From assembly GCA_043803945.1 (NCBI GenBank), contig JAZDJN010000070.1, forward strand, positions 1 through 59,048: a DNA stretch of 59,048 nt. The letters are read 5' to 3'. The notes under the pieces are model-generated. The model made no database searches. It was given only the letters and a program-made list of their open reading frames with translations, and was not told the DNA's origin. The translations under genes and the position numbers were made by a program. This stretch comes from a bacterium. Lineage in GTDB: Bacteria > Bacteroidota > Ignavibacteria > UBA10030. Positions 19,365 to 57,299 of the stretch are shown here, in pieces. Every line of letters starts with the position of its first letter. Positions within the stretch are counted from its first letter, which is position 1.

Positions 19365-22300
19365 ATGAAAATGGTACAGACATCCTTGATTCTAATACTC
19401 ATCATTCTTTTAGCGCCTGCTATTGTCTTTGGGCAAAGTACATTACGAGGTGTTGTTACCGATACTATCAGTCAGGAAAAACTGATCGGTGTGAATGTTC
19501 ATCTTCTTGGGACATCCCTGGGATGCCCCACGAATATCGAAGGTGAATACAGAATAACAGGGATCCCGGAACGGGTAGTATCAATCCGGGTATCTTGTGT
19601 TGGATACGAGGCAAAGATTATTGAATTGGATTTCAGAAATCGAAAGGAGATAGAGTTAAATGTCCAATTGACGGCAGTAGCAATTATTGCCGGTGAAGTA
19701 ATCGTAACCGCTCAATTGAGAGGTCAGCTCGCAGCGATCAATCAACAGCTGACAGCCAACACCATCAAGAATATTGTATCAGAAGAGAAGATCCAGGAGC
19801 TTCCCGATGCAAACGCTGCAGAAGCCATCGGTCGGCTGCCGGGGGTTTCACTTCTTCGCAGTGGAGGTGAGGCAAGTAAAGTTGTTCTGCGTGGATTAAG
19901 CGATAAGTATTCTGTCGTGATGATTGATGGGATACGAATGGCTCCCACGGATGAGAATGAGCGGGGAGTCGATTTGAGCACAATCTCCCAGGGATCTCTT
20001 GCAGGGATTGAGATCTCCAAAGCGCTCACGGCAGATATGGATGCTGATGCAATTGCTGGAAGTGTAAACCTGGTAACCAAGAAAGCGCCAAGTTTACGCT
20101 ATCTCAGATTCGAACCAAGAGGTTCCTACAATGCGATGGAGAAATCTGCCGGCCAATATAATCTGGCAGCCCGATATGGAGAGAGGTTTTTTGATGACCG
20201 TTTGGGTGTCCAGCTCTCGGCAAATCTTGAACGGACAATTCGGAGCCACGAGACAACAAATCTCGACTACGAGCTTGTCGACATCAAGAGTGGTAATGAT
20301 TATGAAATAACGCAGCTTCAGGTTACCTATGTGAACGAAATCCGGAAGCGTGGCGGAGGGAACCTCCTGCTTGATTATGATTCACCCGATGGTGGCTCCA
20401 TCCGCCTGAATGCGGTGATCAACCGAACTTCCAGAGATTATCTCACCTCCTACCGAACGTATGCACAGAGCAGCGGTGTATCATATGATTACCGTGATCG
20501 GGAGACAGATATCACCACGATCAACACCTTCCTCCATGGCGACAACTATCTCATGGGGTTCAAGATCGATTGGAGTCTGTCGTTTTCTCAGGCAAGGAGG
20601 AAAGATCCATTCGATTTTGAATTGAATATGACTGAATCATCGTCCCTCGATGGTTCGGGCAATGTCTTTTCGGGGATGCGCAATGTACCGGATGCCTTGG
20701 TGAAGGGACCCGTGAAAGAATGGATCCCCTATGCGATGAACAATTTCCAGGCTGCTTACATTAATCAGGCGAATGATCGCTCACAGGGAAATCTGGATGA
20801 AGAGCAAGGGGCGTCGATTGATCTCACCAGGGAGTATACACTCGGAGAGAGTATCTCAGGTGAGTTCAAGATCGGTGGGAAATATAGAATGAAGTCACGA
20901 TTTGCGGTACACCATGAAGGACGATCGAACTACTACCTGTATGCATGGCCTGAGTGGACCAGACCCGAAGATGGTACTATCGTCAAGAAAAGTCTTGCAG
21001 GGACACGTTTTGAAAATCTTAAATTAACACAGGGTGGATTAGTCATCTTTTCCAATTTTCTTGATCCTTCTCCGGTACGACGGGACGTTTTTGGGGAATA
21101 TGCAATGTATCCATTGATCAACCGTGATGCGTTACGGGACTGGCAGCAACTGAATGTTGACGGTGTACTCGATCAACGAGGTGCAGAAGCAGAGTACAAA
21201 AACAATTTTGAGATTGAAGGTGATGATTATGATATAACGGAACGCATTACCGCGGGGTATCTCATGAACACCATAAATTTTGGCAGGACGGTTTCATTGA
21301 TCCTCGGTGCACGTTGGGAAAGTGATGATAATGACTACATGTCCAAGTATACTGCTAAGCCATTGAGTGGTTTCCCTTTCCCGTTTGGTGAATTACGGGA
21401 TACGACGGTTTCACATACAGAAACCACGCTGCTCCCAAATGTTCAGGGAATTGTCAGGCTATTTGATTTCATGAATGTCCGTCTGGCGATGTATAAAGCA
21501 CTTTCCCGCCCTGATTTCAATCACCGCCTGTTGAAGTTCGTTGCCCGATCGGCAAGTGGCAATGTCCTCGATATTGGAAATACTGACCTGACGAATGCTG
21601 TCGCCTGGAATTATGAAGTGCAAACGCAATTCTTCGGGAATGCGATTGGCTTATTTTCCATTTCCGCATTCTACAAAGATATTACACATATGCATCAATT
21701 TATTAATGGGATCCCTTTGAGCGGTCAACGAGTTCTTGATAGTCTTGGCATTCACTGGAAACAACCGTTTCCTACGGACAATACAATCTACAACCTTTCG
21801 TATCCCTATAACTCGAATCAACCGACACATGTTTGGGGATTTGAGGTGGAACACCAGACCGATCTCAACTTCCTCCCCGGACGGTTAAAAAATATCGTCT
21901 TGAACTACAATTTCACTATCGTTCGATCCGAAACGTGGATCTCCACATCGAAAGTCGAAACCACGTACGTGGTGCAGTTCCCGTTTCCCTTCCCCGTGCC
22001 AGTGTCCAAGAATGTTCTCATCGAGAAGAAGCAGAAGCTCCAGGATCAACCGGAGTTCTTCGGGAACGCTTCACTGGGATATGACATTGAAGGTTTTTCC
22101 TTCCGTCTCTCGGTTTTCCATCAGGGAAGTTACAACACAACCTTCTCCTCGAATCAACGAAGTGATGGAACACAAGATAGTTATACCCGGTGGGACCTTG
22201 CCCTGAAACAGCGTGTTATGGAAAACATCTCCATCATCGTCAATCTGAATAATATTTCAAACGTGCAGGAGGGCACAGCCATCGCAAACAGGCTTCACTC

Positions 22301-22373
22301 CGAGTGGGTCTTGCCCGATGTCCATACCCGTTATGGATTCACTGCAGATGTTGGAGTACGAATCGAGTTCTAG
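19365..22373 (+). CDS. TonB-dependent receptor (non-SusC type)
   Basis: Signal peptide, carboxypeptidase-regulatory-like N domain, plug (ELPDANAAEAIGRLPGVS, ADAIAGSVNL), barrel ending in F; RBS AAGGAGG. Confidence 0.92.
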   Translation: MKMVQTSLILILIILLAPAIVFGQSTLRGVVTDTISQEKLIGVNVHLLGTSLGCPTNIEGEYRITGIPERVVSIRVSCVGYEAKIIELDFRNRKEIELNVQLTAVAIIAGEVIVTAQLRGQLAAINQQLTANTIKNIVSEEKIQELPDANAAEAIGRLPGVSLLRSGGEASKVVLRGLSDKYSVVMIDGIRMAPTDENERGVDLSTISQGSLAGIEISKALTADMDADAIAGSVNLVTKKAPSLRYLRFEPRGSYNAMEKSAGQYNLAARYGERFFDDRLGVQLSANLERTIRSHETTNLDYELVDIKSGNDYEITQLQVTYVNEIRKRGGGNLLLDYDSPDGGSIRLNAVINRTSRDYLTSYRTYAQSSGVSYDYRDRETDITTINTFLHGDNYLMGFKIDWSLSFSQARRKDPFDFELNMTESSSLDGSGNVFSGMRNVPDALVKGPVKEWIPYAMNNFQAAYINQANDRSQGNLDEEQGASIDLTREYTLGESISGEFKIGGKYRMKSRFAVHHEGRSNYYLYAWPEWTRPEDGTIVKKSLAGTRFENLKLTQGGLVIFSNFLDPSPVRRDVFGEYAMYPLINRDALRDWQQLNVDGVLDQRGAEAEYKNNFEIEGDDYDITERITAGYLMNTINFGRTVSLILGARWESDDNDYMSKYTAKPLSGFPFPFGELRDTTVSHTETTLLPNVQGIVRLFDFMNVRLAMYKALSRPDFNHRLLKFVARSASGNVLDIGNTDLTNAVAWNYEVQTQFFGNAIGLFSISAFYKDITHMHQFINGIPLSGQRVLDSLGIHWKQPFPTDNTIYNLSYPYNSNQPTHVWGFEVEHQTDLNFLPGRLKNIVLNYNFTIVRSETWISTSKVETTYVVQFPFPFPVPVSKNVLIEKKQKLQDQPEFFGNASLGYDIEGFSFRLSVFHQGSYNTTFSSNQRSDGTQDSYTRWDLALKQRVMENISIIVNLNNISNVQEGTAIANRLHSEWVLPDVHTRYGFTADVGVRIEF

Positions 22374-22417
22374 TCACAATTCACTAATATCCTCAACTTT
22401 TTAAGTAGGAGGTAATC

Positions 22418-24067
22418 ATGAGATTCACAGTTCTTCTTTGTGCATGGATGCTCCTTCTTCCGGTGTTTGCTCTCTGTCAGACTCCGGATGAAGTGGTTCT
22501 TCCGGGGTATGCAACATCAATGAAGTATCTCAATGACCAGATTATGGGTGATACAACCGCTACCGGTGCAAGGGTGAATGCGAACCGTACATACGTTTTA
22601 AAGCGGAATGAGATCTACATTGTCGTTTCCTCCATCAGAAATGCTGCATGGAAATTACGCATAAGAGCTGAAGCGGGAACAGGAAAAAAACCGGTCGTCT
22701 ATACATTCAAGAATCCAAGCACAAATGCATACATCGGTATGCAATTCGACGTCCGAGGTGATTTATGGCTTAAAAATATAGCATTTGTCGGATGGTCTAC
22801 CCTGGCAACCGATCTCTCTGTCATGCCTCCCCGCATTATTCAGGTGAATAGCACGGGGAATACGGTGGAGGTCGATAGCTGTGTGCTCGTGGGAACGAGG
22901 GCAGCCACGATTGAAACACCTTCAGCCACAAAGAGACTCCAGGTCACCAATACAACATTTGCCCAATCCGGAAATCTCTTTGCGACCAATATCGGCAATG
23001 GCAGACCGATTGATTGCAGGAATGTGTCAATTGATAGCGTGATCGTGAGGAATTGCACGTTCCTCGATGGAACCGACAGGATCCTTCGCCATTATTCAAG
23101 TATTGGAGCTCTGAAATATGTTTTCTTCGATCATAATACAATTGCGAACTCGCTCTCAATGCATGGATGTCTCGGCCTCGGGATTGTTGGTGAAAAGGTG
23201 ATTATTACGAACAACCTCTTTGTGGACAATTTCGTTCTCGGGAATGATAGTTCCGATGCGGTACGGTTGTCAGAATTTGGAGATACGAAAGAAAAAGGAC
23301 CCAGCGGAGCATATCGTATGACATTTGTCGGCAGTGTGCCGGATACAGCCGGTCAGGCAGTGCTTACGCAGTGGATTGTACGGAATAATTATTATGCGGT
23401 GAGTTCGGCAGTGCAAACCTGGTACAATTCCAAGAGCAGCCTTAGCATTGGAAATCTTGTACCGTTGACGTGGCACATTAATAAAAAACTTGGTGCCGAC
23501 TCCGTGAATGCATTTAAGAAAGAATCAATCACCTTCAATAAGCTCACAAGATATCTGGTGCCTTTTGCGACATGGTACTACGATCCCAATGGGGCGAATA
23601 AGCAGAAGGTCAACACGGGTTTCACCTCTGCCATTGATTTTGATCGGAATGAATGGAATTTCTACACCGACACGCTCGACCTGAGGTACCAAACCACCGC
23701 TCAAGCATATACCGGAGCGGATAATGGCCAGCCGGCCGGCTCGTTAATGTGGTGGAAAATGTTATTAACCGGAGTCGAGAAAGATGCAGATCAGAACATT
23801 CCGCAGTCATTTTCACTTGCTCAGAACTATCCCAATCCCTTTAATCCGAATACGAAAATCTCATTCTCACTACCGGCAAGTGGAAGAATCCTTCTTAAGG
23901 TTTTCAATGTTCTCGGACAAGAAGTGAGGACACTCGTCGATGCGCATTACCTCGCCGGCAAATATGAGGTTGAGTTCGATGCTGGCGCGTTGAGTAGTGG
24001 TGTGTATATTTATTCGCTCACAAGTGGAAACTCCATTGCCTCAAAAAAGATGACACTGGTAAAATAA
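22418..24067 (+). CDS. Secreted beta-helix-like protein with T9SS type-A sorting domain
   Basis: Signal peptide; beta-helix-like repeats (VTNTTF, VRNCTF, FDHNTI, ITNNLF, VRNNYY); C-terminal LAQNYPNPFNP...SGVYIY...KKMTLVK. Confidence 0.8.
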   Translation: MRFTVLLCAWMLLLPVFALCQTPDEVVLPGYATSMKYLNDQIMGDTTATGARVNANRTYVLKRNEIYIVVSSIRNAAWKLRIRAEAGTGKKPVVYTFKNPSTNAYIGMQFDVRGDLWLKNIAFVGWSTLATDLSVMPPRIIQVNSTGNTVEVDSCVLVGTRAATIETPSATKRLQVTNTTFAQSGNLFATNIGNGRPIDCRNVSIDSVIVRNCTFLDGTDRILRHYSSIGALKYVFFDHNTIANSLSMHGCLGLGIVGEKVIITNNLFVDNFVLGNDSSDAVRLSEFGDTKEKGPSGAYRMTFVGSVPDTAGQAVLTQWIVRNNYYAVSSAVQTWYNSKSSLSIGNLVPLTWHINKKLGADSVNAFKKESITFNKLTRYLVPFATWYYDPNGANKQKVNTGFTSAIDFDRNEWNFYTDTLDLRYQTTAQAYTGADNGQPAGSLMWWKMLLTGVEKDADQNIPQSFSLAQNYPNPFNPNTKISFSLPASGRILLKVFNVLGQEVRTLVDAHYLAGKYEVEFDAGALSSGVYIYSLTSGNSIASKKMTLVK

Positions 24068-24118: not shown

Positions 24119-24178
24119 GTACGTTGATTGGTACCCATCACGCATACCTGTATACGATTGAGAGGTTCTTGGATTTCA

Positions 24179-26158
24179 ATGAACGATCATCATCGAATCA
24201 TCATGCCGGCCCAGGCCAATAAGCAATCCGTTGAAGCACGAGCGCAAGTCAGAAGCCGTTTAGTATTTATTATCATTGGCATAGTATCAATGCTCTGGTT
24301 TTTCCTCCGGGTGATTCCGAAACCGAATCGGGTCACCTACCCGTGTGTACGGGCGGCTGCGCCGGTGATGTCGGGCTTTATTCTTTATCTCCTCGGTGTT
24401 ACCGGTACATTGCTGGCGTTTAAAAATGCTCTGCGGAATTTCCGAAACGCGCGATATTGTACAGCTGCACTTCTCCTCTTTATCACTCTGGGGACAATAT
24501 TTCTATCGTTCACCGGTGATCAGCGTCCCGTCTTCGCTAATTCGATACTCCTGCTTGGTCCCAACCAGCCAGTCGGAATACCACGAGGGATCTTTCCGGG
24601 AAGAGTCGTCTGGGTGTGGGATCCGCAGTCGACAAATGAGAGCTGCACGAATGTTTTTGGCGACGGGTGGTTTATGGATAAGAACACGAATGGCAGTGTC
24701 GTGAATACGATGGTTGCTGATGCTGTAGCGCAACTGGCCGGTAAAGGAACGATTAAAGAATCATGGGATGCTTTGTTCAAATACTTTAACCAGGCACATG
24801 GAAAGGGGAACGTCGGGTATACCGATGGAGAAAAGATCTTCATCCGGACGAACCAGGTCAGCGCCAGCAGTGGAACATATGATGACAATACTTACGAAAT
24901 AAAAAACCAGAGTCGTTACGGAATGGCTGAAACATCTCCACACGTTGTGCTGGCAGTGCTCCGACAACTTGTGAATGCATGCGGTGTGAAACAGGAAAAC
25001 ATTTCAGTGGGTGATCCGATGAAGCACATGTATAAACATGTGTACGACCTTTGGCACAATGAATTCCCGAATATTGTCTACATCGATGCAGATGCGAGGT
25101 TGGGAAGAACAGCACCACGAGCGAGCAATCAACCGGTCATCTACTACTCCGATCGGGGGCAGATTCTCAAGTCAGGCGGTTCAACCGGTACACCGATCCT
25201 CTCGGATTACTACCCGACGGTGATCACAGAAGCAAGTTACCTGATTACGATTCCGGCATTGAAGGCGCATGCGAGGGGAGGCGTGACACTCTGCGGGAAG
25301 ATCCATTTTGGCTCTAATTTGAGGGGGAGTGCGACACATCTCCATGGCGGTTTAATCGCACCAGAGAAAGTCACTAATACGAGCACGATGAGACCGGGGT
25401 ACGGACTATATCGGGTGCAGGTGGACCTGATGGGGCACAAGGATCTTGGAGAAAAAACCGTTCTGTTCCTAATCGATGCACTCTGGGGCGGCTCGGAAGC
25501 AAACGATCCACCAAGGAAATTCGAGATACCTCCCTTCAACAAGGATTGGACCTCCTCGGTCTTCGCTTCTCAAGATCAGGTCGCTATCGAATCGGTCTGT
25601 TTCGATTTTCTGAAAGCAGAGTACACCTCTTCGAATCCATACGGTTCATATCCACAGGTGCCGGGTGCGGACGATCATATTCTGCAGGCAGCAGATGCTA
25701 CCTACTGGCCGGCGGGGTTTCGCTATGATCCTGAAAATGATGGAAGTCCAATCCCTAGTCTCGGTGTTTGTGAACACTGGAATAATGCGATGAACAAGCA
25801 GTATTCGAAAAATCTTGGTCCCGGTGCCGGTATCGAATTGCATTGGATCAATAAAACCCTGACTTCAATCCAGTCGACTTATACAATTCCTGGACAATCC
25901 TTCAGACTTTTTCAGAACTACCCCAATCCATTCAATCCGACGACGACGATCAATTATCAGTTATCTATTTCTTCTATCGTGACGTTAGATATTTTTGATA
26001 TTCAGGGAAGAAAAATCACGACGCTTGTGGATGAAATGCAAGAGAAAGGTGAATACGCCATTGAATGGAATGCTCGTACCGTCCCCAGTGGCATGTACTT
26101 CTATAGACTTACAGCGGGGAAAGAAACAGAATCAAAAAAACTGATCCTACAGAGATAA
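24179..26158 (+). CDS. DUF362 domain protein with N-terminal membrane segments and T9SS type-A sorting domain
   Basis: WFFLRVIPKPNRVTYPC, GIFPGRVVWV, IPALKAH..GVTLCGKIHFG and SQDQVAIESV; C-terminal QNYPNPFNP...KKLILQR. The start is uncertain. Confidence 0.75.
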   Translation: MNDHHRIIMPAQANKQSVEARAQVRSRLVFIIIGIVSMLWFFLRVIPKPNRVTYPCVRAAAPVMSGFILYLLGVTGTLLAFKNALRNFRNARYCTAALLLFITLGTIFLSFTGDQRPVFANSILLLGPNQPVGIPRGIFPGRVVWVWDPQSTNESCTNVFGDGWFMDKNTNGSVVNTMVADAVAQLAGKGTIKESWDALFKYFNQAHGKGNVGYTDGEKIFIRTNQVSASSGTYDDNTYEIKNQSRYGMAETSPHVVLAVLRQLVNACGVKQENISVGDPMKHMYKHVYDLWHNEFPNIVYIDADARLGRTAPRASNQPVIYYSDRGQILKSGGSTGTPILSDYYPTVITEASYLITIPALKAHARGGVTLCGKIHFGSNLRGSATHLHGGLIAPEKVTNTSTMRPGYGLYRVQVDLMGHKDLGEKTVLFLIDALWGGSEANDPPRKFEIPPFNKDWTSSVFASQDQVAIESVCFDFLKAEYTSSNPYGSYPQVPGADDHILQAADATYWPAGFRYDPENDGSPIPSLGVCEHWNNAMNKQYSKNLGPGAGIELHWINKTLTSIQSTYTIPGQSFRLFQNYPNPFNPTTTINYQLSISSIVTLDIFDIQGRKITTLVDEMQEKGEYAIEWNARTVPSGMYFYRLTAGKETESKKLILQR

Positions 26159-37830: not shown

Positions 37831-37943
37831 ACCTAAGTGAGCAGAATGGAGGTGGTTGTTCTTCATGGACTTCTATGAACAAAAAAAGAAGTGGCCTAAG
37901 AAACAATTCAGAGTGTACCAATTATCAAGTAAGGAGGAACGCA

Positions 37944-40900
37944 ATGAGAAGATTATCTCTAGTTAAGAAGAGATCCAGACTTTTGGTGGTTTGGATAGCA
38001 ATGGGCCTCTTCATTCATGGTGGAGTACTCTTTGCTGATATCAAAGGCAAAATTGCCGGGACGATCAAAGATGCTGACACGAATCAACCCTTACCGGGTG
38101 TCAATGTTGTTCTTGAAGGGACGACACTCGGGGCGATCACCGATGTCTCAGGCTATTACTTTATCATTAATGTTGCTCCAGGGAATTACTCGGTTAAGGC
38201 ATCGATGATTGGATTTGAAAAGGTGATTAAAAAAGATGTTCAGGTCAGCTCGAATCATACCACAGAGCTTGATTTTACACTGAAACCAACTCCTATCGAA
38301 GGTGCTGAAGTTGTGATTACAGCGCAGAGGGAGATCGTCAAGAAGGATGTCTCATCGAGTCAGATTGTTGCAGGCGAGAGCGAGATGCAATCTGTACCGA
38401 TGATCAACAACATCATGTCGTTTGTCAATATGCAGGCCGGCATTTCAGGAGATGAAATTCGTGCCGGTGGATTGGATCAAATTGGGTATGTCGTCGACGG
38501 ATTGGTCTCCATCGATAACCGAACGAACCGCCCGCTGATGCAGGTGAATTTGAGCACAATCTCTGAGATTTCAATCACCAAAGGGGGATTCAATGCAGAG
38601 TATGGAAACCTGCGGTCGGGGTTGATCAATGTCGTGACGAAGGATCCTACACCGAACAAATACCATATCACCGTCGATATGCGATTGACACCTTCCAGGT
38701 TGAAACACGAGGGTGCTCCGATAACGAGTCCTGATAATTTTTACAACAGACCATTTCTCGATCCTGCTGTATGCTGGACCGGAATCAAGAAAGGAAGTTG
38801 GGATTCCTTGGCGAAAAGCCAATATGAATATACTGCATTCCGAGATTGGGAAGGTTGGCTTTCGTATGCAAAAGGAAAAGGTATGACACCCGACCAGGCT
38901 CGACAACTCTATCTCTGGCAACATGGGATGGCGGTGACAGATTCTCTGGGGAATAAAGTCGGGCCATCACGTAAATTGATTAACTATGGTGATAAACCTG
39001 ACCTTTTTGGAGAAATAACCGTCTCCGGAGGTGTCCCGATTATTGGAGAGGCGTTAGGGGATATGGCGTTTCTCGTTTCGTACAGGAGTAATCTGCAGGC
39101 CTATGCGTTGCCCACATTCAGGGACTATTACCAGAACGACAACGCACAAATAAAATTAACATCGCATATCACATCGTTGATGAAACTGGGTATTGAGGCA
39201 AGCTATGGAGAAACGAACACGATCGGAAACAGCAACTCCGGTGGTACAGATAATGACTATGTGACAAGCGGAACCGATATTATGAATTCCGGTATGTACG
39301 ATGCTTCCGGAAACTATCGATGGGCGTGGTGGCCGTATGCCACCGTTCCGTTCAATATTTATAGCAGCATGCTGGGTCTCACGTTCGATCATATGATCGA
39401 CAGGAATACTTTTTACAATGTGAGGATTTCTGGTGTTCACATAAAAAATTATTCCGGTGAATGGGGACCGGACGCTTATCGGGATACCACAACCCTCGCA
39501 TATTTCGGATCTGCAGCTATGGATAACCGACCATGGGGATTCTTCATCGGCAGTGGTACAAGTCAGAATACTGTCGGAGACAATGCCGTCACAGGTTCTG
39601 CCGGAGGTGGCCAGCGGGATTTTGGTGAAGTGAACACCTTGAACATCAAGTTCGACCTCACCAGCCAGATTGATCGATATCATCAGGTGAAGACTGGATT
39701 TGACTTTACGTACGATGATCTCCATACGGATTTTTCCAGGATTCGCTATGAATCTCACTGGGAAGATTATAATACCCAATGGAACCATTTCCCCTATCGA
39801 TTGGGGGCTTATCTGCAGGACAAACTCGAGTTTGAAGGGATGATCGCGAACATCGGTATTCGGTTGGACTATAATGAGCCCAATAGCGATTGGTTTACCC
39901 TCGATCCGTATATGAAATATATTCAAAGAAAATATAAAGACCAGATTTACACCAGCGCTCCATCCGAAAAAGCCAAAGGGCATCTCAAGATCAGTCCGCG
40001 GTTGGGCATCTCTCATCCTATTTCAGAGGATGTCAAATTGTACTTCTCCTACGGTCATTTCTATTCCATGCCCTCCTCAACGAACATGTATGTGATCAAC
40101 CAGGCCAGGGCTTCAGACGCCATCACCCAACTCGGAAATCCGAACATTCTCTTGCCGAGAACAATAGCGTATGAGCTCGGTGTCGATTACGATATCGCTG
40201 GCGCAGCCCTGTTGCATCTGGCTGGATATTACAAAAACGTGGAGGATCAGATCAGCAGTGTGACCTACACGTTCTATGGCGGTACACCAACCTACACCAC
40301 CTATACGAATAACAATTATGCTGATATCCGTGGATTCGAAATCCAGCTTGAGAGAAATTTTGGCTTATGGATTACTGGATTTGCAAATTATACGTACCAG
40401 GTGGAGAACCATGGAAATTTTGGAATCAATGCGTACTTCCAGGATCCACGAACTCAAGAGGGGTATGTACAGCCTGACGTGACAAGAGAACAGATTCGAC
40501 CGTGGGCGAGAGCAAACTTACGGCTCCAGACGCCGGTGGAATGGGGCCCGGAAGTCTTCGGCATCCAGCCATTGAGCGATTGGATCATCAGCCCGTATTT
40601 CACCTGGCAGGCAGGTTCCTATACCACGATTAATCCGAAAAATGTTCTGGGTGATGCTATCTCGAATAATGTTCAATGGAAATCAACCTGGTCGGTAGAC
40701 CTGAAAATCAATAAGCGATTTTCTATTGCCAACATGAATGTGGAATTATTTGCCGACATCAATAATGTGTTCAACACAAAATTCATGGACCATACCACTG
40801 GATTCTCCAGCACGGGTGAGAATAGCGATCAGGAGACGTATTATAAATCCCTGTGCCTGCCCATCTATGACAATCCGGCATTCGATCAACTGCGGCAACA

Positions 40901-41045
40901 AAACCCCGGATTTTATCTGCCGGGAAACGACCAGCTTGGGGATGTCAAAAGCGATGATAAACCATACATCCACATGCCCAGTCGTGACTTCCTCATTTAC
41001 AGGGACCTCCGCTATGTGACATTCGGTATCCGGGTAAACTTATAG
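37944..41045 (+). CDS. TonB-dependent receptor (non-SusC type)
   Basis: GKIAGTIKD..LPGVNV, plug GGFNAEYGNLRSGLINVVTK, ISPRLGISHPI and GNPNI.P.TIAYELG; AAGGAGG RBS before ATG 37944. Confidence 0.9.
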   Translation: MRRLSLVKKRSRLLVVWIAMGLFIHGGVLFADIKGKIAGTIKDADTNQPLPGVNVVLEGTTLGAITDVSGYYFIINVAPGNYSVKASMIGFEKVIKKDVQVSSNHTTELDFTLKPTPIEGAEVVITAQREIVKKDVSSSQIVAGESEMQSVPMINNIMSFVNMQAGISGDEIRAGGLDQIGYVVDGLVSIDNRTNRPLMQVNLSTISEISITKGGFNAEYGNLRSGLINVVTKDPTPNKYHITVDMRLTPSRLKHEGAPITSPDNFYNRPFLDPAVCWTGIKKGSWDSLAKSQYEYTAFRDWEGWLSYAKGKGMTPDQARQLYLWQHGMAVTDSLGNKVGPSRKLINYGDKPDLFGEITVSGGVPIIGEALGDMAFLVSYRSNLQAYALPTFRDYYQNDNAQIKLTSHITSLMKLGIEASYGETNTIGNSNSGGTDNDYVTSGTDIMNSGMYDASGNYRWAWWPYATVPFNIYSSMLGLTFDHMIDRNTFYNVRISGVHIKNYSGEWGPDAYRDTTTLAYFGSAAMDNRPWGFFIGSGTSQNTVGDNAVTGSAGGGQRDFGEVNTLNIKFDLTSQIDRYHQVKTGFDFTYDDLHTDFSRIRYESHWEDYNTQWNHFPYRLGAYLQDKLEFEGMIANIGIRLDYNEPNSDWFTLDPYMKYIQRKYKDQIYTSAPSEKAKGHLKISPRLGISHPISEDVKLYFSYGHFYSMPSSTNMYVINQARASDAITQLGNPNILLPRTIAYELGVDYDIAGAALLHLAGYYKNVEDQISSVTYTFYGGTPTYTTYTNNNYADIRGFEIQLERNFGLWITGFANYTYQVENHGNFGINAYFQDPRTQEGYVQPDVTREQIRPWARANLRLQTPVEWGPEVFGIQPLSDWIISPYFTWQAGSYTTINPKNVLGDAISNNVQWKSTWSVDLKINKRFSIANMNVELFADINNVFNTKFMDHTTGFSSTGENSDQETYYKSLCLPIYDNPAFDQLRQQNPGFYLPGNDQLGDVKSDDKPYIHMPSRDFLIYRDLRYVTFGIRVNL

Positions 41046-41068
41046 CCTATCGAAAGGAAGGAAAAATT

Positions 41069-43258
41069 ATGAGACGTATTTACACTGTGTATATAGTTCT
41101 CATGCTGTTCGTAATCGTCAATGCTCCTTTGAGCGCCCAGGGTGTTGTCAAGGAGGTCAATGTTGGAAAACTCCATACCAGGGTTGTGGATAACGGTCAC
41201 CAGAGTGAGACGGAATCGGGTAAAGAGGATAACAGAGGAGTCGCACATTACTATTTTGACGGTCACAATAATACGAACAGAATGTTTTCACGATGGTCGG
41301 TTCGAACCTGTGGAACCCATATAGGAATTCCACGATGGAGAGACACGACTGGTACCATATGGCCATTTATGACGGCCGGTGCTGAGCAAGGGACATCTGA
41401 TGCAGAGAAGATACAGTTTGTGGTTCCAGATGCCCTTGGCAATACTATCTATAAATATGTACGCTGTAAACCCCCTACGGTCATCGTCGATGGCAACTAT
41501 GTCAACGATCCCTTTCCTTATGATGAAATGGAAATGGTGGCACCTGAAAAGATCCCTGGCAGTGCAGATGTCATGATTGAATCGCATATAAGGACATGGA
41601 TCGGCCTTGACATCCATCAGAAAGTACTAGGATGGAGTCAAGATAACCATGATGATTATGTAATCTATGATATCGTTTTTAAAAATACTGGAAATGTGAA
41701 CAGGGATAGTAAAATAGAGCTTCCCACTCAGATCTTAGACAGCCTGTATCTCATGCGCACATTCCAGAGTTTCCCTGCTGCATCGAGAGATAAAGAATGG
41801 GCGAGTTGGACAGCCCCTACTGATTCGCTCCGGATGCATTATAATTATCCGAGCCGACAAGTGGGTACAACGACAGACGATTTCGGCGGGCCGCGTAATG
41901 ATCAAAATCAACAGCGGTTGTACGGACCACAGTATTGCGGTGAAGCGACGCTGTTCGTAAGTAAAGCTCCGAACGACATGGTGAACGATAACCCGGCACA
42001 GCCGCAGATGCGTACCATCTGGGATGCCCGGCTACTTTATATTAAAGAAAACGCACTGCTGCACCCGAATGAACTTGATAAAGCATACGATGTCATGAAG
42101 CGCGGCGTCACTAGCTGGACGGCAGGTGATCCGACGTATACAAAACCACCGCTCTATCCCGGAACCCTCATCGAGATGCCTCCGGATCGGGGGAATGTTG
42201 ATTTTATGACGAAAATCGTTCCATGGGGACCAACGGGCAGATATCATTCCCTGCCAATGTATTCCATCGGACCGTTCAAACTTGCCCCTGGTGATTCCAT
42301 ACGATTGGTGTATGCAATTGTCGAAGGGAGCATTTCAAAAAGAAGAGCCTTTGAGATTGCGCGGGATTGGTATGCGAAGATGTGTACTCCACCTTCTGGA
42401 TTCGACTGGGCTACCAAAAAGGACAATCTACCACCGCAATACAAAGCATTTCCAGCCCTCTACAACAATAATCAGAATGACTGGGCGAAGGATTGCTGGG
42501 TCGCAACGGGTAAGGACTCACTATTCCAGAATGCAAAAGCGGCACAGTGGAATGTTCGTCAGAATTATAACATACCGACAGCACCCCCTCCTCCATCTGT
42601 CGAAATACAGGGTCGCTCGAATGCAATTCGCATTAAGTGGGGTAAAGAATCTGAATCTGTGCCAGATTTTGCGGGATATCGGGTGTATCGAACAATCGGA
42701 AGCTATCAGGATTCTGCTTGGGTTCCGATCTTTGAATGCACAAAAGCGAACCTGGTTCACGAGTACGATGATGTATCGGCAACTCGAGGAGCTGCATACT
42801 ACTATAGTGTCACGGCGTTCGATGACGGCGTTTCCAACGCTGCCGATTTTCATGGCAAGAAGCAGAGCCTTGAGAGCAATATGCTGGCGACAATGACTAC
42901 GCGCCCTACTAGCCTTGCTCGTCCGGCTGTACTGAGCTCATTGGATAGTATCCGTGTTGTTCCCAATCCGTTTAGCCTTGCGGCGCAGAAGCTTCAGTTT
43001 CCTGGACAAAGAGATAAGATTGTGTTTTATGGTCTTCCTCCTGAATGCACAATCAGGATATTCTCCGAAAGCGGTGACCTTGTCAAAACCATCGAACACA
43101 CCAGAGGATCCGGCGATGAATTCTGGGGGATTGGAACAATCAATAACGATCTCCAGACCACCGATACCGGACAACGACCGGTGAGCGGGATTTACATTGC
43201 GAATATTGTCACACCCGACGGCGCAACCAAGAATGTAAAATTTCTTATAGTGCGGTAA
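41069..43258 (+). CDS. Secreted FN3-containing protein with a distinct (type-B-like) T9SS sorting tail
   Basis: Signal peptide; FN3 (APPPP..IKWG..FAGYRVYR..YYYSVTAFD); tail IRVVPNPF..CTIRIFSESGDLVKTI..SGIYI..KFLIVR. Confidence 0.75.
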   Translation: MRRIYTVYIVLMLFVIVNAPLSAQGVVKEVNVGKLHTRVVDNGHQSETESGKEDNRGVAHYYFDGHNNTNRMFSRWSVRTCGTHIGIPRWRDTTGTIWPFMTAGAEQGTSDAEKIQFVVPDALGNTIYKYVRCKPPTVIVDGNYVNDPFPYDEMEMVAPEKIPGSADVMIESHIRTWIGLDIHQKVLGWSQDNHDDYVIYDIVFKNTGNVNRDSKIELPTQILDSLYLMRTFQSFPAASRDKEWASWTAPTDSLRMHYNYPSRQVGTTTDDFGGPRNDQNQQRLYGPQYCGEATLFVSKAPNDMVNDNPAQPQMRTIWDARLLYIKENALLHPNELDKAYDVMKRGVTSWTAGDPTYTKPPLYPGTLIEMPPDRGNVDFMTKIVPWGPTGRYHSLPMYSIGPFKLAPGDSIRLVYAIVEGSISKRRAFEIARDWYAKMCTPPSGFDWATKKDNLPPQYKAFPALYNNNQNDWAKDCWVATGKDSLFQNAKAAQWNVRQNYNIPTAPPPPSVEIQGRSNAIRIKWGKESESVPDFAGYRVYRTIGSYQDSAWVPIFECTKANLVHEYDDVSATRGAAYYYSVTAFDDGVSNAADFHGKKQSLESNMLATMTTRPTSLARPAVLSSLDSIRVVPNPFSLAAQKLQFPGQRDKIVFYGLPPECTIRIFSESGDLVKTIEHTRGSGDEFWGIGTINNDLQTTDTGQRPVSGIYIANIVTPDGATKNVKFLIVR

Positions 43259-43282
43259 TCGCATGAAAGGAGGAACGATTAT

Positions 43283-44272
43283 ATGAAAAAGTGGAAGAGT
43301 ATAATACGTATAAGCATGATGATAGTACTCGTATCAGGTTCCATGGGCGCAATCGAAAAGAAGGTGGCTCAAACGGGTCTTCAATTTTTGAAGATCGATA
43401 TGAGTTCTCGTGCGGCAGCGATGGGTGGTAGTTACATCACCATCAACAATGACGCAACATCGATGTTCTACAATCCGGCAGGATTGGCCAGGATGGAATC
43501 GACACTGGATATCTTCGCAACAAAAACCCAATGGTTTGCAGGTATCTCCTACCTTGGAGGCGGAGTAGCATACAACCTTGGGGATTGGGGAACCGTCGGT
43601 GCAAGCTGGATGACCTGTGATTATGGCGACGATTTTATAGGGACACAATATGCCAATACTCCTTCAGGGTACATCGAAACAGGCAACCTCAACGTTACTT
43701 CGTATGCTGGAGGTTTTTCCTATGCCAAATCCCTGACTAATAAATTTTCAATCGGCGCACAGGTCAAATACTGTTATCAGCAATTGGGCGAAAATTTTAT
43801 CGATGCAGCGGGTACAGTGAGAAAGAATAAAGTATCGGGGATGGCGTACGACTTCGGCACGATCTTCTATCCCGGTTTCAAGGATTTCAGGATCGGTATG
43901 TCCATCCGTAATTTTTCTCCGGAGTTCAAGTATGAAAATGAGGGTTTCGAATTGCCTCTCACGTTTGTCATCGGCGCTTCCATGGATGTTCTGGATTTGC
44001 TCGGCGAGCATGAGAATCCCCTTCTGGTTTCTGTCGATGCCACGCACCCTCGGGATTATACTGAACGGCTCCACGTGGGTGCTGAATACACGTTCATGAA
44101 GATGATCTCATTCCGCGCCGGATATAAGTACAATTATGATAATGAGAGATTCACCGCTGGAATCGGTTTTCAGCAGGACCTTGCGGGCGTTGGTATTAAC
44201 ATCGGCTACGCTTACGCCACGATGAAGTATTTTGATGCAGTGCATCGGATCTCAATCGGGATGTCGTATTAG
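43283..44272 (+). CDS. PorV/PorQ family outer-membrane beta-barrel
   Basis: QFLKID.SSRAAAMG..D.TSMFYNPAGLA is the PorV/FadL-type N-terminus; alternating beta-strands; terminal Y; 329 aa. Confidence 0.85.
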   Translation: MKKWKSIIRISMMIVLVSGSMGAIEKKVAQTGLQFLKIDMSSRAAAMGGSYITINNDATSMFYNPAGLARMESTLDIFATKTQWFAGISYLGGGVAYNLGDWGTVGASWMTCDYGDDFIGTQYANTPSGYIETGNLNVTSYAGGFSYAKSLTNKFSIGAQVKYCYQQLGENFIDAAGTVRKNKVSGMAYDFGTIFYPGFKDFRIGMSIRNFSPEFKYENEGFELPLTFVIGASMDVLDLLGEHENPLLVSVDATHPRDYTERLHVGAEYTFMKMISFRAGYKYNYDNERFTAGIGFQQDLAGVGINIGYAYATMKYFDAVHRISIGMSY

Positions 44273-44301
44273 CACTACGAAGTGGGTGATTAATAAATGT
44301 G

Positions 44302-44390
44302 GAGATCACTGTCGGAGGAAGTATACGATGGCACCTGTTCCGGACTGTTGGACCAAACAGGTCTTCTGCTTCTTTCTACAGTCCGATCTC
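44302..44390 (+). other. Long intercistronic stem-loop after the PorV-like gene
   Basis: Nested pairings GAGATC/GATCTC, ACTGT/ACAGT, GGAGGAAGTA/TGCTTCTTTC and ACCTGTT/AACAGGT. Confidence 0.55.
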
Positions 44391-44452
44391 ATGGCGCTGA
44401 ACTTTTCAGGATCTGGCAAAAATAACAACGCTTGTGCAAAGAGATAAAGCAG

Positions 44453-55843: not shown

Positions 55844-56170
55844 CTATCGCAGTAAGAGCATTTTCTTCGTCTGAACAACCTCGCTCGTTTGAAGTTGATA
55901 GAAATAGACTCCGCTCGGGAACTGGGAATTCCACTGTACCTGATAAGTGCCGGCGTTCTGTTTATGATTCACGAGCGTGGCAACGACCTGCCCGAGAGTA
56001 TTCATAACTTTCAATGATACATGGGATTCTTTCGGAAGCTGATAACGAATTGTTGTACTCGGATTGAATGGGTTGGGATAGTTATCAAAGAGTTCAAATT
56101 GTTCCGGCAGCGTTAGTGAAGGATCCTTCACTCTTACAACCGATGTCGATTTAATGTAAGAGAGATTGTT
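55844..56170 (-). pseudogene. Orphan T9SS type-A sorting domain, out of frame with the upstream GH76-like gene
   Basis: TSVVRVKD..LPEQFELFDNYPNPFNPSTTI..SGVYFY..TKKMLLLR has no plausible start or signal peptide of its own. Confidence 0.75.
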
Positions 56171-57299
56171 GATAGAGCACATAGGCAAATACACCGAATG
56201 CTCTGATTGCCTGCGATTGTGCATGAACCGTTCCCACCTCATCAACGCCGTACCCATCCTCACCTCCATAAGGATTCCAGCCATTCCGAATGCCATCATC
56301 CGAAAGGCGGTGCAGCACAACCGAGTTGTTCCCATGATGATTGGTCCACACATGATCGAGCATTGTTTCAATTTTTCCAGGAATATCGGAAAGTTGATCC
56401 GGTGCAACCAGGTATGCATCAAGAAGATAGTGAACGAATGCACCGTTGCCATCCATGCGAAGTTGATAGAAATCCTGAGGATCGATCCATCCGGATGCAG
56501 GATCCATCATGCGTTTGGCGGTCTTCACGACAATGTCTTTATACTTTGCCTGGTGTGTCACGCGATAGAGCGATGCAGCGATGGAACAATACTCAACGCC
56601 ATTCCATGGAAGCTGCTTGCCGAATGCTGCTCTCCCTGATTTTCCCGTCCACGTTCCATTGCCCCGATAAAATGTTTTTTCAATGCCGGGAAATTTCTTG
56701 TCCCCCTCCCAGGCCAGCAGTGCATCGATGATGAACCGTTGTTCTCCCGTTGCTTCATAGAGCCAGCAGCCCACATTGACCATTTGGTTCATGTTACTGT
56801 TTGTGAAAATGTTATCTTCGACTTTTGCCTTTGGAGGCCAATTGTACCAGCTCCAGTAACCTTCGTGGTTCGAAAACCTTCCCTCGGCTCGTGCCTCCAG
56901 GTACCGTTGCTTTGCATCCTCTACCCAGGCCATCCTCGTACGGCCTGTGAAATGCCACCAATACATTTCAGCCAGACAAATCCACGCACGGTCATCGACC
57001 CATGTTCCGTTAAACATCTTTCGCAAATCGAATGGTCCGGTGTAGAGACGCAGAAGGCCTGGATCCTTGGTGACCGCGTAAAGATGTGCATCTCCAATTG
57101 CGCCGTTTGCACCTTCCCAACCCGGTGTATAGACGCGGTGAAACAATGCATCTATGGCATAACATTGTTTCACGATCTTCTCAAGCGCCTGCGATGTTGC
57201 GGGTGTCCCCGATTTCTGTGCAAGCGCGAACTGCGATAGGAAGAGAAAGACCAATACCAGCGAAACCTGCTGCATTGGGCACGAACGAAGCAATTTCAT
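56151..57299 (-). CDS. GH76-like (alpha/alpha)6 glycoside hydrolase
   Basis: Signal peptide; WVDDRAW catalytic DD motif, NSNMN and DGNGAFVHYL; GGAG RBS. Confidence 0.65.
   Translation of the reverse strand: MKLLRSCPMQQVSLVLVFLFLSQFALAQKSGTPATSQALEKIVKQCYAIDALFHRVYTPGWEGANGAIGDAHLYAVTKDPGLLRLYTGPFDLRKMFNGTWVDDRAWICLAEMYWWHFTGRTRMAWVEDAKQRYLEARAEGRFSNHEGYWSWYNWPPKAKVEDNIFTNSNMNQMVNVGCWLYEATGEQRFIIDALLAWEGDKKFPGIEKTFYRGNGTWTGKSGRAAFGKQLPWNGVEYCSIAASLYRVTHQAKYKDIVVKTAKRMMDPASGWIDPQDFYQLRMDGNGAFVHYLLDAYLVAPDQLSDIPGKIETMLDHVWTNHHGNNSVVLHRLSDDGIRNGWNPYGGEDGYGVDEVGTVHAQSQAIRAFGVFAYVLYQQSLLH

Follow-up and report, generated by a model that had tools for sequence, protein, structure and literature searches.

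A conserved receptor-cargo-barrel gene triad built from TonB and type IX secretion parts, a candidate SusD-independent module for glycan capture

How might a TonB-dependent receptor encoded in the middle of a carbohydrate-active enzyme (CAZyme) cluster capture its ligand when no SusD stands beside it? The question is raised by a contig of 59,048 nucleotides from an Ignavibacteria bacterium of the Bacteroidota (UBA10030; GenBank assembly GCA_043803945.1, contig JAZDJN010000070.1), which in its full length is referred to here as the window. Three consecutive genes on its forward strand encode a TonB-dependent receptor of 1033 residues (37944-41045), a secreted partner of 729 residues that we term the cargo (41069-43258) and a PorV/PorQ-family barrel of 329 residues (43283-44272). 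Here we show that this triad is a conserved and widespread three-gene outer-membrane module. We lean towards a reading in which the cargo is exported by a type IX secretion system (T9SS) as a non-catalytic glycan-binding partner, is held over its receptor by a private barrel and does the job of SusD there. More tentatively, such triads may represent a second main architecture of TonB-dependent glycan capture, common in the lineages of the Fibrobacterota-Chlorobiota-Bacteroidota (FCB) group outside the Bacteroidia, in which the barrel extracts a T9SS lid with an uncleaved tail and then serves as its permanent hinge in a ternary complex.

A first-pass annotation of the window had described the three genes as tightly linked and preceded by strong ribosome-binding sites, and both descriptions hold. 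The three same-strand open reading frames (ORFs) are 23 nt (receptor to cargo) and 24 nt (cargo to barrel) apart, and an AGGA-type site lies ahead of each, with Shine-Dalgarno (SD)-like motifs AGGAGG at 37932-37937 for the receptor, AGGAAGGA at 41055-41062 for the cargo and AGGAGG at 43268-43273 for the barrel. The receptor frame is open already from 37827; we placed its start at the ATG at 37944 because the SD motif stands before that codon.

The receptor is composed of a signal peptide, a CarboxypepD_reg N-terminal extension (PF13715), a plug (PF07715, a weak match) and a 22-strand barrel (PF00593). An AlphaFold2 (AF2) model built from 49 sequences (predicted local distance difference test score, pLDDT, 83) has 22 strands, with extracellular loops of very large size around residues 250-352 and 941-1023, and its Foldseek matches are all generic TonB-dependent transporters, SusC among them. 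With a plug, a 22-strand barrel and a TonB in the host genome (TonB_C matches above cut-off), the protein is a TonB-dependent receptor. By profile score it is not a SusC: it reaches 47.6 bits against TIGR04056 (SusC/RagA), for which the cut-off is 368.25, whereas a true SusC encoded by the same genome scores 496.7.

The cargo has a Sec-type N-terminus (its signal peptide was judged by eye), carries no lipobox cysteine, its first cysteine being residue 81, and returned no Pfam match at E<=0.01. The named proteins among its 161 homologues are mostly labelled 'hypothetical', and the clusters found in the ESM Atlas are unnamed or named only for fibronectin type III (FN3) domains. An AF2 model from 114 sequences (pLDDT 91; predicted template modelling score, pTM, 0.91) divides the protein into three predicted parts, all read on the forward strand. 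Residues ~25-497 (41141-42559) are assigned by VIA-align and AF2 secondary structure to a beta-supersandwich with linker helices, residues ~505-620 (42581-42928) to an FN3-like spacer that follows a polyproline linker, and residues ~622-729 (42932-43255) to an immunoglobulin (Ig)-like tail of about 108 residues resembling a T9SS C-terminal domain (CTD), the last on the basis of a sub-cut-off TIGR04183 match, a fold match to PorZ and a tail profile. The earlier description of the cargo as an FN3 protein is upheld for the spacer by a profile match to the Fn3-like domain of 3mpc (E 0.0025) and by Foldseek matches to FN3 tandems; it finds no counterpart in the Pfam scan.

Residues ~25-500 of the cargo resemble the N-terminal non-catalytic domain of enzymes of glycoside hydrolase (GH) families GH15, GH65, GH94 and GH116 (VIA-align Z 15.0-18.3, rmsd 3.0-4.3, 219-279 residues aligned) and, more weakly, the galactose-mutarotase fold (Z 12.5). 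Unlike the GH enzymes, to which it is only 6-13% identical, the cargo lacks the (alpha/alpha)6 catalytic barrel: its model passes from the linker helices directly into the FN3 domain and then into the tail. The cargo belongs to no known enzyme family; the opposite outcome, a known enzyme, had been named by the first-pass annotation as fatal to its proposal. Conservation among 144 relatives is highest in the tail (0.60) and next in the FN3 domain (0.55), and over the sandwich it is mostly 0.31 and 0.38, with 0.56 at residues 126-230. Such low conservation over most of the sandwich, with high conservation in the tail and FN3 domain, is what would be expected of a binder with diversifying specificity.

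The tail, the most conserved section of the cargo, follows the pattern VVPNPF...HxxGxGDExW...SGxY...KFxIxR. Its VVPNPF...KFLIVR form in the window had been singled out as distinct, and four of the five window ORFs with PNP[FY] tails do carry NYPNPFNP instead. In the model the tail strands occupy residues 629-727 in a seven-strand Ig-like CTD fold, in a protein that also bears a Sec signal. The tail superposes on the PorZ structure 5m11 with Z 11.5 and rmsd 2.4 over 91 residues (26% identity), a weak PorZ family match below cut-off is found in the cargo, and an ordinary tail from the window aligns with it weakly (E 0.0012). A hidden Markov model of the tail, built from 219 relatives outside the host genome, ranks 13 triad cargoes at the top of that genome with 44-148 bits. 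The fourteenth triad cargo, at 20.9, comes below the highest-scoring ordinary tail, at 23.5, in a genome with at least 150 ordinary type-A tails. Judged by these profiles, the cargo tails form a separate, triad-specific class. At about 108 residues the tail matches in length those of PorZ and PorU, which are described as uncleaved, 96 and 108 residues long and longer than cleaved tails (PMC11285876), and we counted this in favour of uncut anchoring.

The third protein passes the model of the PorV/PorQ family (NF033709, 206.8 bits, cut-off 90), as its first description as PorV-like would predict, and has a profile match to PorV 6h3i_F at E 1.3e-18. It falls below the cut-offs for the PorV and PorQ orthologues (NF033710, 73.4 against 250; NF033711, 78.9 against 220) and for PorV2 (61.3 against 325). 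A quick tree inferred by maximum likelihood from 37 barrels, in which deep branches are weak and the position of FadL is a long-branch placement of which no use was made, nests it among triad barrels of other phyla with 94-98 support in the Shimodaira-Hasegawa-like approximate likelihood-ratio test (SH-aLRT) and apart from the PorU-linked PorV; the grouping with housekeeping PorV that would have counted against a dedicated barrel is not seen. On the scores and the tree, it is a triad-specific paralogue of the PorV/PorQ family and no orthologue of the housekeeping proteins.

The window triad is one of 14 in the host genome, 13 of which are ordered receptor-cargo-barrel, the remaining one having its cargo two genes further upstream. 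There are 20 PorV-like matches in the genome, and the best 14 are all triad barrels, each with a related receptor and cargo; the housekeeping PorV is located elsewhere, adjoining PorU. Across the 14 sets the receptors share a mean pairwise identity of 27%, the barrels 30%, the tails 33% and the cargo bodies 22%, and by this measure the paralogues are old. Against these 14 triads stand one clear SusC pair and one further candidate. The clear pair, on contig C9 (9391-14130; L219), consists of the true SusC mentioned above and a SusD-like lipoprotein whose PF07980 match, 19.2, is below cut-off; the candidate SusC/SusD pair is located at C2:25479-29807. The earlier remark that no SusD is recognisable thus stands for the window, where none of the 34 proteins scanned matched SusD models, and does not extend to the genome; the notion of a genome without SusD was rejected on account of the pair on C9.

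Two further arrangements were observed in the same genome. Three triads (C81:12490, C56:48420 and C75:18652) are followed by a fourth gene, encoding 511-522 residues that end in barrel-like strands. Separately, five related receptors, each with an adjoining downstream protein of 550-850 residues bearing an ordinary type-A-looking tail, form a second SusD-free pattern, found in the window at 19365-24067 on the forward strand and at C56:25643, C13:2853, C105:7104 and C27:87235. The window copy scores 297.5 against TIGR01782 (cut-off 310) and no PorV paralogue adjoins it; in this pattern the housekeeping PorV may take the place of a dedicated barrel.

The linkage extends far beyond the host. A GTDB survey gave 78 loci from the best 80 of the 498 confirmed matches listed; some of these nearly duplicate one another, L029 was judged manually, and loci truncated at the end of a contig were left out of the counts. 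Where assessable, the receptor lies upstream of the cargo in 70/70 and the barrel downstream in 71/72, with both partners in 65/66. In their record titles these loci are ascribed to KSB1, Marinimicrobia, Calditrichota, Latescibacterota, Ignavibacteria and further groups, some of the names probably reflecting binning errors. In 80 metagenome loci the corresponding figures are 65/65, 65/67 and 53/55. A cargo profile at E<=1e-20 finds matches in 215 of 301 genomes from the host class and in 147 of 401 from the host phylum; the weak ones among these may cover just the tail, and related genomes are not independent. Among 43 loci from class and phylum the receptor is upstream in 42/42 and the barrel directly downstream in 20/42. 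Loss of the barrel from the other 22 was considered and rejected: 16 of these were fetched (six were not), of which 12 read barrel-receptor-cargo, in three the cargo is separated from the barrel by a single gene and one could not be assessed, and the barrel is thus still within the unit in 15/15 assessable loci. What the first-pass annotation had expected to be a conserved order is therefore a conserved unit whose order varies, and its survival through reordering argues for selection on linkage. The loci ordered barrel-receptor-cargo include a subclade (L203-L211, L213, L216 and L218) whose cargo tail has a longer insertion ahead of the last strand. An apparent receptor-cargo fusion in L029 was rejected, being a scaffold gap of Ns. 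In the surroundings of 33 loci, 65 of the 97 neighbouring proteins listed were scanned; 20 of the 65 are GHs, lyases, esterases or sulfatases, spread over 15 of the 33 loci, and five have LamG domains.

According to the reading that we prefer, the cargo would cross the inner membrane via Sec and the outer membrane via SprA, using its CTD-like tail. It would be collected by the private PorV-family barrel and not by the housekeeping PorV, PorU would leave the tail uncut, and the cargo would stay bound much as PorZ does on PorQ, the barrel standing in for the lipid anchor of SusD. The FN3 spacer would position the supersandwich over the extracellular loops of the receptor, where it would bind, without catalysis, oligosaccharides from the neighbouring lyases and hydrolases. 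TonB would then pull the receptor plug and the sugar would pass into the periplasm. Of the export machinery, SprA, PorU and a PorU-linked PorV were found in the host genome; a second PorU-like protein of 1797 residues, below the family cut-off, is encoded at C91:110791-116184.

Several findings weigh against this reading. The window cargo scores 14.5 bits against TIGR04183, below the cut-off of 23, and has no PF18962 match; one triad paralogue, on C81, does pass TIGR04183. In searches of the host genome with the GldK, GldM and GldN models, GldK gave sub-cut-off matches only and the other two none; no control genome scored above cut-off either. With no PorK/M/N-type motor or ring gene above cut-off, the export machine is identified only partly, and the host may have a T9SS that is reduced or has diverged strongly. 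In two metagenome loci, whose upstream side was not seen, the receptor and cargo lack a directly following barrel, and at L076 (2345-11829) a single receptor precedes a tandem array of three cargo genes, closely related to one another, and the contig ends ahead of any barrel; together these loci put strain on a fixed 1:1:1 complex. Furthermore, 18 of the 33 loci have no GH, lyase, esterase or sulfatase among their sampled neighbours. A co-phylogeny of tail and barrel, proposed at the outset as a check, did not reach significance: with rho 0.22 and p 0.07 the 14 paralogues show weak co-divergence, below that between tail and receptor (0.42).

Attempts to detect contact directly gave little. Complex prediction pairing residues 489-1033 of the receptor with residues 25-479 of the cargo scored 0.19 and 0.14 (mark 0.32), with both chains shortened and controls not folded, and counts neither for nor against contact. 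Covariation between receptor and cargo by mutual information with average product correction (MI-APC), at an effective depth of about 100-120, places 84% of the top 50 pairs on extracellular loops against a background of 48%, with 17 pairs at z>4.5. After three swaps of near neighbours 60-80% and 3-7 pairs are retained, which indicates that the covariation is mostly relatedness. Between cargo and barrel the same method shows no enrichment in the tail, which has 6% of the top 50 pairs and 15% of the columns.

Other explanations of the triad fare less well in our judgement. The beta-supersandwich fold is catalytic in some proteins, mutarotases and polysaccharide lyase family 4 (PL4) enzymes among them, and this too counts against a purely binding role. 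The cargo could then be a new surface enzyme (a lyase, epimerase/mutarotase or hydrolase) with its active site in the supersandwich, anchored by the barrel near the receptor and trimming the substrate for import. The top fold matches are indeed all carbohydrate-active enzymes, the mutarotase-like folds follow at Z 12.5, and for eight ionisable residues (D141, D167, H194, D195, R255, D270, K474 and D483) conservation across the 144 near relatives is 90% or more. However, the part matched is the non-catalytic domain of those enzymes, and the catalytic one is missing. Aldose 1-epimerase has an invariant His/His/Glu catalytic set, and judged by sequence conservation the cargo appears to have no set of this type: H194 (0.90) is the only histidine in its N-terminal region that is at least 75% conserved, no glutamate there reaches that level, and H194 is replaced by Tyr or Phe in four of the five other paralogues of the genome that align at this position. 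A single cargo family, moreover, serves loci with very different CAZymes. The pattern of conserved residues favours a binding protein rather than an enzyme, and we regard a catalytic cargo as improbable.

The barrel might alternatively act as a private shuttle only, taking the cargo from SprA and handing it to the receptor or releasing it, with the cargo receptor-bound or a soluble, hemophore-like scavenger and with no tethered lid. PorV is itself a shuttle and type-B cargo is described as having cognate shuttles (PMC12618676), the tail diverges more in step with the receptor than with the barrel, and the three cargo genes at L076 would suit this arrangement. We nevertheless consider it unlikely: the long tail is PorZ-like, and the tail of PorZ is described as uncut and held by PorQ (PMC10947112), while roughly one barrel per receptor (14/14 in the host genome) is easier to square with a stoichiometric anchor than with a shuttle that is recycled. 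Least probable of all, in our view, is that the three genes are merely co-regulated and their products act apart; the barrel might then be a channel or assembly factor resembling FadL, and the cargo a binding protein that resides in the periplasm or has an anchor of its own. FadL/TodX similarity is detectable in the barrel (Pfam E 0.0044; PDB E 0.006), FadL-family barrels have other roles, BamG being an example (PMC12578637, PMC12611786), and linkage alone predicts co-divergence of linked genes. Yet the barrel is far nearer to PorV than to TodX, the special tail is confined to proteins linked to a receptor and barrel, and the linkage outlasts gene reordering.

The surroundings of the triad in the window accord with the CAZyme locus described for it. 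Pfam and NCBIfam scans delimit a same-strand cluster at 26173-55666 on the forward strand with two GH29 enzymes, three of GH88/105 type, and GH28, GH95-like, GH97 and GH2 members, together with a secreted lyase-like protein, a heparinase II/III-like protein, a member of the alginate-lyase family and a sugar oxidoreductase. By these assignments the cluster points to uronate- and fucose-containing glycans, and the ligand imported by the window copy is probably a uronate- or fucose-rich oligosaccharide. The long hairpin said to close the unit exists as a folded, imperfect stem 3' of the barrel gene (44302-44390, forward strand; -36.6 kcal/mol, z -3.69 with limits picked post hoc). Its role as a terminator is unsupported: no U-run follows it and the whole intergenic stretch, 44270-44432, gives a z of only -0.97. 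It has no second copy in the host genome and is possibly a stem for RNA stability or processing. Elsewhere in the window, a type-A-tailed protein with a DUF362 domain is encoded within the glycan cluster at 24128-26158, and on the reverse strand at 55844-57299 a 382-residue ORF without a Pfam match overlaps a short ORF bearing a type-A tail, the two being possibly a single frameshifted secreted gene.

The triad could serve as a SusD-free marker for glycan-uptake loci in lineages that are missed by prediction of polysaccharide utilisation loci (PULs) from susCD, the starting point described for PULDB (PMC5753385). If the triads do represent a second main architecture of glycan capture, tools that look for susCD first would miss most uptake loci of triad-bearing organisms, the host genome with its 14 triads and one or two SusC/SusD pairs being a case in point, and the cargo tail would be a further class of T9SS signal that escapes cleavage by PorU. 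A single PorV is described as serving type-A cargo, and cognate shuttles as serving type-B cargo (PMC12618676); against that background the triad would explain the many PorV paralogues of these genomes. It would further supply a new family of carbohydrate-binding proteins, and a rule, open to test, that separates T9SS tails that are cut from those that stay anchored.

A full-text search, judged by titles and the beginnings of abstracts and with most subscription papers outside its scope, returned no description of the triad, and each of the known systems nearest to it differs in essential parts. BamG of the Bacteroidota BAM complex likewise is a 14-strand barrel of FadL/PorV fold sitting on a larger barrel, with loops that bind a surface protein (PMC12578637, PMC12611786), but its task, shared with lipoprotein partners, is the assembly of outer-membrane proteins, and it involves neither a TonB receptor nor a T9SS tail. 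Type-B cargo with PorP/SprF, as in Flavobacterium johnsoniae, shares a barrel gene directly 3' of the cargo and a suggested stoichiometric role (PMC12618676). The triad differs in having a barrel of the PorV/PorQ family, a type-A-like tail rather than one of TIGR04131 and a receptor gene within the unit; TIGR04131 and PorP-family models matched neither cargo nor barrel at E<=0.1 and nothing in the host genome, the controls being silent too. The first-pass annotation had taken this as the nearest precedent, a place that belongs instead to the T9SS attachment complex of Porphyromonas gingivalis, where PorZ (and likewise PorU with PorV) has an uncleaved tail on a PorV-family barrel, PorQ, and where the tail of PorZ matches that of the cargo structurally. 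PorZ is, in contrast, a single-copy T9SS component that delivers A-lipopolysaccharide (A-LPS), whereas the triads of the host genome comprise 14 paralogous pairs, each tied to a receptor, with a cargo body of unrelated fold. SusC/SusD (RagA/RagB) shares with the triad a large CarboxypepD_reg TonB receptor, a partner gene directly after it, CAZyme clusters and many paralogues (PULDB, PMC5753385). Its receptor model, TIGR04056, rejects the triad receptor (47.6 against 368), and the cargo, which has no SusD match, is not a lipoprotein and is mostly beta rather than helical and tetratricopeptide repeat (TPR)-like; the unit also has a third gene, that of the barrel. In function the triad is, on balance, probably SusC/SusD-like; it is no member of that system, since both defining models fail, and appears to be a hitherto undescribed form of TonB-dependent uptake of glycans that draws its parts from the T9SS.

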